Of a stretch of 64,000 nt of DNA, positions 5,383 through 44,504 are shown piece by piece (position 1 is the stretch's first letter; every line of letters starts with the position of its first letter). The translations under genes and the position numbers were made by a program. The notes under the pieces are model-generated. The model worked only from the letters and a program-made list of their open reading frames with translations. It had not been told where the DNA came from and searched no databases. Source of the DNA: a virus. Lineage: Duplodnaviria > Caudoviricetes. Where the stretch lies: positions 1-64,000 of the IMG/VR virus record IMGVR_UViG_3300009095_000011; one strand, 5' to 3'.

Positions 5383-6180
5383 TCATTTCATTTCCATTTT
5401 TAATTCAACATGGGTATTATTTATTCCCTTGAAGCTTATATCATCAAGATTGAATCTTTTACCTTCAAGAAATTGTTTGCATATTTCATCTTCATTAAGA
5501 TAATGATTCTCTCCAAAAGTACAATGAGAGGTATCACTTACCCTATTGATCGGTACACCTACTAAGCATTGCTCTATCACACTGAACATATTGCTGCATT
5601 GTGGTGTGAACTTCTGTAACCTGCTTTCAAGTTTATTTGGATTAATGAAGCTTATCTTGTCTATTAGCTTTGTGATGAATTTTGTATCAAATATATTTCC
5701 ATCTACAGACAAAGGATAGGCAGCACATTTAACATTAATATCTCGTGGAATTGTTATGTAGTTCTTGTGAACCATAAAGTCCTTTAAGTATTTATATCGT
5801 TTCCCTAATCGTAAACTGAACACCCTTTTGGTGTGATATATGATTTCATGAATTTGTTCTGATTTTATTCTTGGAGGTCTAAAGAATATATCATCATCTA
5901 CAAGGAAAGTTAGTAGTGGAGTATTGTAGGAGTTGATATGGTTTATTATTGATTTTGTGATCTTCTCAAATTGATTGTCAACTAAATTTTCTTCCTCAAT
6001 GAAAGTTATATGATAATATTTTGAAGCTACATAATTGTATGTAGTCTCATGGTCTTTAGTTGTAGCTTTATAGATTACATAAATGTTATTATATAATCTT
6101 GGTGCGAATCGCTCTATGGATTCAATGAGGAGTTGTAATTGTGCTGCACGATTTTTTGAAAAAATGATACAATCAATCAT
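5383..6180 (-). CDS. GT-A-fold glycosyltransferase
   Basis: IIFSKNRAAQL N-terminus and FLVDDDIF DxD motif. Confidence 0.7.
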   Translation of the reverse strand: MIDCIIFSKNRAAQLQLLIESIERFAPRLYNNIYVIYKATTKDHETTYNYVASKYYHITFIEEENLVDNQFEKITKSIINHINSYNTPLLTFLVDDDIFFRPPRIKSEQIHEIIYHTKRVFSLRLGKRYKYLKDFMVHKNYITIPRDINVKCAAYPLSVDGNIFDTKFITKLIDKISFINPNKLESRLQKFTPQCSNMFSVIEQCLVGVPINRVSDTSHCTFGENHYLNEDEICKQFLEGKRFNLDDISFKGINNTHVELKMEMK

Positions 6181-20995: not shown

Positions 20996-21818
20996 GTAAA
21001 CTACCCACCCACGCATAGCGATGGGTTGGGCTTTAAACCTAAGAACGAATGCACTTGACAGTACAACATACTCGGCTTTTCAGGATGGTTTACAACTTTT
21101 TAAGTTGCTTTAACCGCTCTGCAACGTCATTTGAATACTCTATAAATTCATTTGATAAAGCAACTGTTTTTCTTTCTTCGGCTCTTTTCAGCAACCACTC
21201 TTTAGCTAATTCTAATTGTGGCTTTTTCTCTATACTAAAACGGATGATAGCTTCTATGAAATTAAATAAATCATCATTTTTAACAATCGTCCAAGAATAT
21301 AACGGTTTGTTTGTAAAATGTTTTTTGGTTCTAATAACTCCATTAAAATATTTAGCATACAATTCTAATGTTTGTTTATTAGAAATAGATACAATTACAA
21401 CTAATCGCTGTTTTAGTTTACCAGAGTCTTTTAAAGACATTCTAATACACCCTTCACCATCGAAGTGTCCAGATAGATATGCTTTAATATTTTCAGGTAT
21501 TTGCTTATGGTATTCGGACAATTCAGGATACGCATGTATCCCCATTCTGTTTGCTTTGGTTTTTACTGCACTTCTTGTTTTATTTACAAGTAATGCAATC
21601 CTATCAAAATCGTCAGATGTTTTAATTTCCTTTAATAATTCTGTTTGTTCTTTTGTCCAATTATACATGGTTTCTTTTTTTACAAGGGTACAAAAAAATA
21701 CCCAAACAATGCAATATCAGAAAATAATTTTAAATTTGTTTAACTTTAAAAGCGTTAGCGTGTCGCTTACCTCCCATCCACACCTATCGGTGATGAATGG
21801 GTTTCACGCTCCATTATT
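20996..21818 (-). mobile_element. IS200/IS605-type non-autonomous element carrying a LAGLIDADG gene
   Basis: Subterminal hairpins at both ends homologous to those of 44198-44444; no target duplication; TTCAT immediately 5' of the left end. Confidence 0.75.
21090..21668 (-). CDS. Single-motif LAGLIDADG endonuclease with N-terminal Myb/HTH-like domain
   Basis: AYLSGHFDGEGCI; WTKEQTELLK...IALLVNKTRSAVKTKA; EKKPQLEL. Confidence 0.85.
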   Translation of the reverse strand: MYNWTKEQTELLKEIKTSDDFDRIALLVNKTRSAVKTKANRMGIHAYPELSEYHKQIPENIKAYLSGHFDGEGCIRMSLKDSGKLKQRLVVIVSISNKQTLELYAKYFNGVIRTKKHFTNKPLYSWTIVKNDDLFNFIEAIIRFSIEKKPQLELAKEWLLKRAEERKTVALSNEFIEYSNDVAERLKQLKKL

Positions 21819-23653: not shown

Positions 23654-23686
23654 GTAAATATAAGGATTATATTTGATATGTGCAAA
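23654..23686 (-). promoter_or_regulatory. Bacteroidota-type promoter
   Basis: TTTGCA-N18-TATATTTAC. Confidence 0.65.
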
Positions 23687-42811: not shown

Positions 42812-43833
42812 ATCTCTTTCAATTTTTCAAGTCCATATTTATTATCAGTAATTTTATTATCGCTACAGAACGATTTAAAAGCGTCTACAATCGATTTTTT
42901 ATTATGGGTGATGTTCTTACTCATTTCCTTATCAGATAATGGCTTATCGACGGTATTATGGCTTAAATCAAAGGAGATACCAGCTTGAGTTAACAAGGAA
43001 GTGTCAAATGACTTGACTTTGGCTTGATCACCCTTGATTTTGATTCGGATATTATTGCCACTTTGTTTTTCTTGTTGAAGTTGTAGGATTTCTTTTGAGG
43101 TAAGTTGTTCAACATTGATTTCATATTTGATGTACAAAGGAAAGTGAGATTGAATAAATTCAATTGATCCATCATTATAAAGAATTGTAAAACCCTTTTG
43201 ATCATCCTCTCCAAAGTTGGCCTGATATGTACTTCCGATATAATGAATTGGGAATTGATCAAAACTCTGTCTATTATGGAAATGACCTACTAAAGTTTTA
43301 TCAAATTGTGCAAATGCATTTGCTGGCACTACATCTTGTTGCACTGATCCATCATTATTATTTACCCCGTTGATTGCAACATGGGTTAGGAGGATGTTTG
43401 TTTCTTTAGTATCAATATTGATATCTTGCAATCTTTGCATATAACTTCCAGATTCTTTGAAGAATGGCAGAAAATGTACATTAATGTTGCCAAAATGTAC
43501 ATTTGAATAATCTCGTATAACTACAAAGATAGTTGAATTGAATACATCAAGAAAGCTATCCTCACTATCATAATCTGTTCGATCGTGATTACCGGCTATG
43601 ATGGCCACCATGATCTTATTATCTTTGAACTTATCAATTATCCTCTGAGTAGCCTTTAATACAGATAATGGCTGTCCAGTACGTGAATTAAACCAATCCC
43701 CACCATGAAGGATTGTGTCTATTTTCAATTCCTTGCATTTAGCAATAGCCTGATCAAAGATGTTTTCTACAAGAGAAATATTGTCAGGCTTTAGGTGTGT
43801 ATCTGTTAGTATGAGTGCTATGGGTTTCTTCAT
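42808..43833 (-). CDS. sbcD: SbcD/Mre11-like nuclease
   Basis: TDTHL, GGDWF, GNHD, GHFH, YIGS..Q.NFGE. Confidence 0.9.
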   Translation of the reverse strand: MKKPIALILTDTHLKPDNISLVENIFDQAIAKCKELKIDTILHGGDWFNSRTGQPLSVLKATQRIIDKFKDNKIMVAIIAGNHDRTDYDSEDSFLDVFNSTIFVVIRDYSNVHFGNINVHFLPFFKESGSYMQRLQDINIDTKETNILLTHVAINGVNNNDGSVQQDVVPANAFAQFDKTLVGHFHNRQSFDQFPIHYIGSTYQANFGEDDQKGFTILYNDGSIEFIQSHFPLYIKYEINVEQLTSKEILQLQQEKQSGNNIRIKIKGDQAKVKSFDTSLLTQAGISFDLSHNTVDKPLSDKEMSKNITHNKKSIVDAFKSFCSDNKITDNKYGLEKLKEI

Positions 43834-44035
43834 GTTCTCTTTTGATTGCTTGTAAATTATCTTCTATGTATTCAAACACTTCTCGGTAAGTTTTATAAGT
43901 GTAAGATTTAGGGCTTATGTTTTCTTTAAGCCACAGTAAATGATGCGCAGGAACGTAAATCATTTCAGTTCCCTTATGTTTACCAAATGGCATTATATCG
44001 GTGTCTTTCATAGCACAGTAATTAAGAATTGACAA
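43784..44035 (-). CDS. Small MPFGKHKG-motif protein (DUF3820-like)
   Basis: MPFGKHKG...VP..HLLWL. Confidence 0.65.
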   Translation of the reverse strand: MSILNYCAMKDTDIMPFGKHKGTEMIYVPAHHLLWLKENISPKSYTYKTYREVFEYIEDNLQAIKREHEETHSTHTNRYTPKA

Positions 44036-44138
44036 ACTTCTTTACTCTATTGGGAATGCGAGGTAATTCACGAAATTCTGCAAGAAGATGTTGATCTGTG
44101 AGATCATGAGGCAGGATGCCTATATTGATGCGAGTCAT
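44022..44138 (-). pseudogene. denV: Truncated pyrimidine-dimer DNA glycosylase (T4 endonuclease V-like)
   Basis: Hand translation MTRINIGILPHDLTDQHLLAEFRELPRIPNRVKKFVNS* resembles the T4 DenV N-terminus; stops after 38 aa. Confidence 0.75.
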
Positions 44139-44197
44139 GTTACAATTTTTGTTTACGATTTATGATGTAAATGTAAGGATTATATTTCGCAAAGTCA

Positions 44198-44444
44198 GTG
44201 AACTACACATCCACACTTCGTGATGAATGTGCTTCGAGTTTCATAGCTTGTGCTTACTGCTTCCGAAGAAGTTAGGAGTCTTATTTTTGCTCCACTCGTG
44301 TACTCGCAAGTCCCTTACGAGGTTTTAATGTCTTATACTGACAATGCAAATATATAACAAATATTTTAATCTACCAAATTATTTTGTATTTTTTGTCGCT
44401 TACATCCAAACCACTAAAGATGGTTTGGTTTTACGCTCCGTCAT
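44198..44444 (-). mobile_element. 247-bp non-autonomous IS200/IS605-type element (no ORF)
   Basis: Left end ATGACGGAGCGTAAAACC + hairpin, right end hairpin + GTAGTTCAC; TTTAT 5' of the left end; internal promoter. Confidence 0.75.
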
Positions 44445-44446
44445 AT

Positions 44447-44474
44447 AAAAATGGGGGAGAAATATTCTCCCCCA
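44447..44474 (-). terminator. Rho-independent terminator of the SSB gene
   Basis: GGGGAGAA-loop-TCTCCCC followed by T-run. Confidence 0.7.
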
Positions 44475-44504
44475 TCTCTAACAACCATATAACCTAAACA
44501 ACAA

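Follow-up and report, generated by a model that had tools for sequence, protein, structure and literature searches.

Why would a phage carry 247 bp of DNA that encodes no protein, is bounded by the ends of a transposon and contains what resembles the gene for a guide RNA? The element lies in a stretch of 64,000 nucleotides (hereafter the window), which comprises bases 1-64000 of a 114,226-bp IMG/VR virus record rated complete by CheckV. The phage genome (G000) has a GC content of ~33% and holds nearly all of its genes on the minus strand, the strand on which the element is also read. We argue below that the locus is probably a non-autonomous IS200/IS605 mini element of the PATE type, whose promoter-made omegaRNA would be used by TnpB in trans. 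Three features lead to the reading as a PATE-like mini-IS with a self-promoted omegaRNA: the ends of the element, the homology of its RNA region to omegaRNAs, and a promoter that is kept among its copies.

Boundaries and setting of the element

Read along the minus strand, TTTAT (44449-44445) is followed directly by the left end, ATGACGGAGCG, and the element continues to GTAGTTCAC, which ends at 44198 and is followed by the flanking sequence TGACTTTGCGAAATATAATC. Inside 44198-44444 the minus strand holds no ORF of at least 30 aa, and the plus strand has only three ORFs (33-35 aa) within or overlapping the element; a tRNA/tmRNA scan of the window returned none. The GC content of 44200-44349 is 42-43%, against 27-35% in the surroundings, and the GC-richer ~140 nt fold better than shuffled versions of themselves (z = -2.5). 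The hairpin at the right end shows compensatory variants in L005, L006 and L027-L034. The original prediction, made from the letters of the window alone, had described two ends enclosing ~140 nt of GC-richer, hairpin-forming sequence and had reported neither tnpB nor tnpA in the window. Boundaries, GC content and folding agree with that description to the base, and the window indeed contains neither gene. Coordinates are collected in Table 1.

Table 1. Features of the mini element, its surroundings and related loci in the phage genome
Feature	Position	Strand	Remarks
Mini element, left to right end	44444->44198	minus	247 bp, protein-free; boundaries common to copies in other flanks
Intrinsic terminator of the upstream 386-aa gene	44446..44476	minus	stem 44473-44455; T-tail provides the TTTAT target
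TTTAT target / predicted TAM	44445..44449	minus	abuts the left end on its 5' side
Left-end hairpin CCAAACC..GGTTTGG	44406..44428	minus	GGAGCGTAAAA before, GATGTAAGCGAC after
Predicted Bacteroidota-type promoter TTTG-N20-TATATTTG	44347..44378	minus	TTTG 44378-44375; TATATTTG 44354-44347
Predicted omegaRNA scaffold	44198..44341	minus	model match covers 44332-44198 (~135 nt)
Helix 1	44321-44303	minus	part of the omegaRNA scaffold
Helix P2, 5' strand	44298-44294	minus	part of the omegaRNA scaffold
Right-end imperfect hairpin	44206..44231	minus	then TAGTTCAC up to the right end at 44198
Would-be 20-nt guide TGACTTTGCGAAATATAATC	44178..44197	minus	flank, outside the element, adjoining the right end on its 3' side
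TACATTTAC, -7-like box of a phage promoter family	44167..44175	minus	downstream of the element
Second element of the same IS family	20996..21818	minus	left end after TTCAT, with GGAGCGTGAAACCC and a hairpin
Resident tnpB	76290-77486 (L008:3291-4487)	minus	sole tnpB in G000; outside the window, 32 kb away

Derivation from an IS605 element

Where does such an element come from? The same right-end RNA region was found in L010 behind a truncated tnpB. A search with the TnpB fragment of L010 returned 58 phage loci, in ~23 of which a ~400-aa tnpB runs into ...GAAGCCCA-hairpin-TGGGTAG|TTCAC; the stop codon of the gene, TAG, forms part of the right end, inside GGGTAG|TTCAC. In 17 tnpB-linked copies, positions 44332-44198 of the window align to a stretch made up of the tnpB 3' end and the right end. 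Homologues of the left end, of the form TTTAT|A..ACGGAGCGTAAAACC-hairpin-GGATGTAAGCGAC, stand upstream of tnpA/tnpB in L012, L015, L016, L023, L024, L031 and L033; the sequence of the stem varies between copies through compensatory changes, and the hairpin is kept. A complete parent is present in L024, with a divergent 148-aa Y1 transposase (Y1_Tnp, 110 bits) and a 397-aa TnpB carrying the HTH_OrfB_IS605, OrfB_IS605 and TNB domains.

The mini element shares with the full IS605 elements of L024 and of Sphingobacterium cavernae (L080) the left end TTTAT|A..ACGGAGCGTAAAACC-hairpin-GATGTAAGCGAC, the right end GTAGTTCAC and the architecture of the omegaRNA. It differs from them in having lost tnpA and about 1.07 kb of tnpB, with a promoter in their stead, and in an extra UUCG-capped extension on helix 3. 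These sequence comparisons identify the mini element as a deletion derivative of an IS605 element composed of a Y1 tnpA and tnpB, a parent in circulation among Bacteroidota phages and Sphingobacterium-like bacteria.

A tnpB-less derivative of the same IS was also seen in a bacterium, Sphingobacterium litopenaei (L135:3496-3704). Its TnpB is reduced to the last 22 codons, which abut a tnpA fragment, and its omegaRNA scores 91 bits with the covariance model described below.

A conserved omegaRNA scaffold

The omegaRNAs of TnpB come from the right end of the element, and the guide is taken from the flank. A covariance model, R2, was built from tnpB-linked copies only (17 from phages and 4 from bacteria, with no mini element among them). 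It matches the window at 44332-44198 over all 125 model positions (1-125), with 71.0 bits and an E-value of 4e-14; its sole other match in the 64 kb lies at 21115-20996 and scores 21.5 bits.

The aligned sequences fit a five-helix structure, in which hairpin 1 is followed by helix P2, closing a two-part central stem, and by the right-end hairpin, which is closed by GAA/TTC. Among 22 sequences, 94.7% of the cells are paired in this structure versus 32-46% when the partners are slid. Compensatory changes are found in 18 of its 31 pairs, and the observed structure values were reached by none of 500 shuffles. Hairpin 1 covaries from CTCGTAAG/CTTGCGAG in the window to ATCGTCAG/CTGGCGAT in L012, and P2 appears as CGAGT/ACTCG versus CGGGT/ACCCG, CGGAT/GTCCG and CGCTT/AAGCG.

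Rfam 15 offers no family for 44198-44345, not even at E <= 10, and the matches obtained at that threshold near the element are at chance level and all fall on the neighbouring terminator. This miss says little, since no match to any TnpB omegaRNA model appeared. A blastn search of the region against the phage collection, set for distant similarity, also gave no match.

The original prediction had proposed an omegaRNA-like cassette with a guide from the 3' flank and TTTAT as the TAM, to be compared with covariance models. The comparison was positive with a model free of mini elements, the alignment to tnpB-linked omegaRNAs makes the homology a strong one, and TTTAT precedes the left end in the copies described below. 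Assignment of the stretch to the TnpB omegaRNA scaffolds, with the 3' flank as would-be guide and TTTAT as predicted TAM, is fully supported at this structural level. By analogy with known TnpB systems, the flank TGACTTTGCGAAATATAATC would be used as the guide.

Promoter and predicted transcript

How would this RNA be transcribed? A promoter inside the element had been part of the original prediction, and the sequence TTTG-N20-TATATTTG at 44378-44347 upholds it, being kept among the copies. Transcription is predicted to start near 44341. We take the -33/-7 consensus to be of the Bacteroidota type; it agrees as well with the promoter family of the phage itself, TTG(CA)-N20-TAtATTTAC. Taken alone, the motif is as common in the window as chance predicts (3 found, 2.6 expected), so the weight of the promoter comes from its conservation among copies. 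Every mini copy whose upstream sequence is intact retains both the -7 box and the N20 spacing, in the same position. Most of the copies with a short spacer lack 32 nt that are present in the window copy, and in the short-spacer copies GGTTTGG of the left-end hairpin provides the -33 TTTG; here, too, the distance to TATATTTG is exactly 20 nt. L193 and L194 have the long spacer, as in the window, and keep TTTG-N20-TA(T/G)NTTTG. Since the geometry of the boxes is the same through two spacers, it appears to be under selection for transcription.

Past the right end, a terminator hairpin follows within ~30-70 nt in L004 and L006, and a T-run follows directly in L191 and L196; in those copies a discrete small RNA would result. 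The window copy has no terminator between the promoter and the next ORF, and its transcript would read on into a truncated denV-like ORF.

The insertion site itself resembles a promoter. Removal of the element would give TTTAT|TG-N20-TACATTTAC, in which a -33 TTG is restored; with the element in place, this would-be TTG is a CTG. It is plausible from the sequence that the insertion splits a phage promoter. Could the element then be a mobile promoter cassette, whose outward promoter drives the downstream genes after damage to the native -33 box? The change of TTG to CTG and the open path from the promoter to the next ORF would both suit such a role. However, the terminators and T-runs beyond other copies indicate that read-through into a gene is not a common feature, and the gene immediately downstream of the window copy is a 38-aa truncated denV-like remnant. 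We regard this explanation as very improbable and retain that of a promoter serving the omegaRNA.

Two further observations concern the downstream region. A repeated promoter-like family of the form TTG(CA)-N20-(C)TTATATTTAC, often then followed by ...GATGTTTAACTAAAA, occurs genome-wide; its minus-strand sites lie, for example, at 23664, 37724, 81889, 91576 and 99477, and the box at 44167-44175 belongs to it. The 38-aa ORF (44022-44138, minus strand) is a truncated remnant: its similarity to T4 endonuclease V (DenV)-type glycosylases (phrog_1183, E 3e-11) is confined to their residues 1-35. The ORF that comes next (83 aa, 43784-44035) encodes a different small, QSregVF_b-like protein.

Copies, target sites and mobility

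Further copies were sought by exact-word scans of viral contigs and in metagenome contigs. The same element is present in viral contigs L002, L004, L005, L006 and L007 and in nine more metagenome contigs (L191-L199), in about ten distinct insertion contexts whose flanks are unrelated between sites. Similarity among copies begins just 3' of TTTAT in every case, each complete copy ends at GTAGTTCAC, and the 20 nt 3' of the right end are different in each context. TTTAT stands 5' of the left end in the window, L002, L004, L005, L006 and L191-L194, as well as in the full elements L012-L033. The flanks carry no target-site duplication. The element is found, with the same boundaries, at site after site: it has moved between them.

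Empty alleles were looked for at two of these sites. That of the window site was not found in metagenome contigs, nor that of the L196 site in viral contigs. No relatives were found for the 386-aa flanking gene, and those of the phosphoesterase flanking gene are at most 35% identical.

Are the ends still functional? In IS608, DNA guides internal to the ends pair with the cleavage sites. Here the left-end word 5' of the hairpin is GTAAAA where the target is TTTAT and GTGAAA where it is TTCAT, as in the second family member in the window. At the right end, all sequences compared (26/26 and 22/22) have a GAA 5' of the hairpin that pairs with the TTC of TTCAC. Both the covariation of left-end word and target and the GAA/TTC pairing match the IS608 rule, which argues that both ends of the mini element would still be TnpA substrates.

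A mobile element need not have a working RNA. It might be a mobile but idle relic, that is, a young deletion derivative mobilised in trans by TnpA, with an RNA that no TnpB uses and an omegaRNA part that persists only through its overlap with the right-end hairpin and for want of time to decay. The closest copies (L002/L196, L004/L197 and L191), judged on aligned stretches, are nearly identical to the window copy, so conservation within that subtype says little about selection. The phage genome encodes no cognate TnpB, and the second family member at 20996-21818 has lost the central scaffold; both agree with idleness. Yet the deletion spares exactly the whole scaffold (positions 1-125) and not just the ~45-nt right end. 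Moreover, compensatory changes set helices 1 and P2, both dispensable for TnpA, apart from those of tnpB-linked copies, and the spacing of the promoter is preserved through two spacer versions. We therefore consider an idle relic possible but unlikely, and favor an omegaRNA that is made from its own promoter and used in trans.

Two pairs of contigs have the insertion site in common and differ immediately beyond the right end. In L197, compared with L004, the initial ATAT of the would-be guide is missing; L006 and L198 agree in the left flank, and their right flanks are unrelated. The element may mark a recombination breakpoint in these pairs.

Potential sources of TnpA and TnpB

Which TnpB would use the RNA? 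The phage has a tnpB of its own, encoding a 398-aa protein that looks intact and has all three Pfam domains. The gene lies between a baseplate-J gene, whose stop its ATG overlaps, and the next structural gene; it has neither a recognisable left end nor an adjoining tnpA, and no Y1 tnpA was found anywhere in G000. The mini element might thus supply a second guide for this protein, the two forming a phage-internal two-locus system. That the protein is intact, is encoded on the same strand 32 kb away and conserves the D/E/D motif stretches (GIDLG, LEDLN, DRDLNAA) of the cognate TnpB speaks for such an arrangement. However, its identity to the cognate TnpB of L024 is only 36%. The 3' end of its gene, the expected place of its own omegaRNA, ends differently, scores 7.9 bits with R2 (E about 1) and has no similarity in blastn. 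The resident TnpB was rejected as the partner on these grounds; from its sequence it is an unlikely one, and we hold the two-locus system to be improbable.

The resident gene has features of its own. AAATCTCAT is present at both its start and its end, and its 3' end resembles a divergent omegaRNA.

Since the resident TnpB is divergent and would have a different omegaRNA, the likely partner is a TnpB of the host or of a co-infecting phage. A scan of species-representative genomes for the right-end pattern gave matches among which those listed include cyanobacteria, Clostridia, Bacteroidota and archaea; among the matches listed, the best model scores were in Bacteroidota, namely Sphingobacterium cavernae, Chitinophagaceae and Galbibacter. 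S. cavernae has at least 4 copies among the matches listed, scores 138.9 bits and carries the full element as a multi-copy IS. Its L080 copy and the phage contig L024 encode near-identical proteins (TnpA 91%, TnpB 93% identical), which makes a host IS copy or a co-infecting phage a plausible source of both TnpA and TnpB. The original prediction had proposed looking for a tnpB with matching ends in the rest of the genome or in the host: such genes exist in phage contigs (L024) and in Sphingobacterium, and the rest of the phage genome offers only the non-matching resident gene.

Proposed mode of action and relation to known systems

In the reading that we prefer, the promoter would give rise to an omegaRNA from about 44341 with the flank TGACTTTGCGAAATAT... 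as its 3' guide. A cognate TnpB, supplied by a host IS copy or a co-infecting phage and not by the phage's own divergent protein, would load this RNA in trans and cut TTTAT followed by TGACTTTGCGAAATAT..., the sequence of the empty allele. Such an allele would arise after excision, or be brought in by a co-infecting phage without the element. Repair by recombination with an element-bearing copy would then restore or spread the element, and moves to new TTTAT sites would require a Y1 TnpA in trans. The use of the omegaRNA in trans is proposed here by analogy, and action against empty alleles in co-infecting phages, as the original prediction had it, would follow the published cut-and-copy model.

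In the ISDra2/IS608 systems, the guide RNA of TnpB reportedly comes from the tnpB 3' end together with the right end, its 3' guide is said to be taken from the flank, and the TAM is said to be the target of TnpA. The mini element is like these in the origin of its omegaRNA, in a would-be 3' guide from the flank and in a predicted TAM equal to the TnpA target; it differs in the sequence of the scaffold and in the TAM itself, TTTAT versus TTGAT or TTAC.

Is such an element new? PATEs 'often encode omegaRNAs', which TnpB must use in trans (Meers et al. 2023, PMC10055086). Like the ISGst PATEs of Geobacillus stearothermophilus (PMC10055086), the mini element has no protein gene, has end hairpins in common with autonomous and tnpB-only relatives, keeps the omegaRNA, for which TnpB would be needed in trans, would depend on TnpA in trans for mobilisation, and is inserted beside a fixed TAM. 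In contrast to the ISGst PATEs, it resides in the genome of a phage with a Bacteroidota-type host, its own -33/-7 promoter replaces the deleted genes, the single TnpB of the phage is of another subfamily, so that the partner would have to be foreign, and in its sister variants the same shell houses genes for homing endonucleases of the HNH and LAGLIDADG types. As judged from sequence, the element shows the features tested here that define PATE-type IS200/IS605 derivatives and TnpB omegaRNAs. Elements of this kind, omegaRNA-bearing PATEs, are already in the literature (PMC10055086), and the present case is a well-documented new example and not a new system; for this reason it brings little conceptual change.

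What the locus offers is a clean, well-bounded, nuclease-less guide-RNA transposon inside a phage, now documented with a defined parent IS, a probable host nuclease source and ten or so insertion sites. Peculiar to it are the non-cognate resident TnpB, that probable host source, a promoter maintained through two spacers, and the HNH and LAGLIDADG sisters. Should the RNA truly be put to use, the phage would be directing a foreign nuclease against rival alleles from this locus, which would amount to a minimal gene drive.

Sister elements with homing endonuclease genes

The second element of the family in the window carries a 192-aa LAGLIDADG ORF at 21668-21090 (LAGLIDADG_1, 27.3 bits), and closes with a right-end hairpin ending in GGGTAGTTTAC. 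Of the omegaRNA, the central part is unrecognisable; the R2 match falls on the 3' tail. A homing endonuclease is found in the place expected for tnpB.

A 194-aa EndoVII/HNH-type endonuclease gene was found in L005:3505-4089 (minus strand) and L010:1501-2085 (plus strand), in copies that are 82% identical. It sits at the same spot in both, in hairpin 1 of the omegaRNA region, within a mini element in L005 and behind the truncated tnpB in L010. It looks like a homing endonuclease gene that has invaded the omegaRNA gene itself. Other classes of element were considered. A group I/II intron, a reading prompted by the HNH ORF inside a sister copy, was rejected because the ends are not intron-like and have no Rfam intron match, and further because they are those of an IS605 element with tnpA/tnpB. 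An IscB/IshB-type system was set aside because the HNH protein (P0001) is of the phage EndoVII/HNH homing-endonuclease type (phrog_1035), and also because the RNA is of the TnpB type, with a 3' guide.

The occurrence of HNH and LAGLIDADG genes in the same shell provides a testable link between RNA-guided and protein-guided homing. A far-reaching reading would be that Bacteroidota phages carry guide-only IS605 shells with a promoter of their own that borrow a foreign TnpB, in effect an RNA-guided, nuclease-less gene drive, and that the two homing strategies are interchangeable modules. A TnpB borrowed from the host or from another phage would then cleave insertion-free genomes of co-infecting phages and convert them, and in the sister shells protein-only homing endonucleases (HNH, LAGLIDADG) would have taken the place of the RNA-guided nuclease. 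We think this rather doubtful.

L005 contains a second omegaRNA at 5721-5848 (minus strand), equivalent to L200:1469-1596, which scores 98 bits with R2 and lies beside a short remnant of the TnpB C-terminus.
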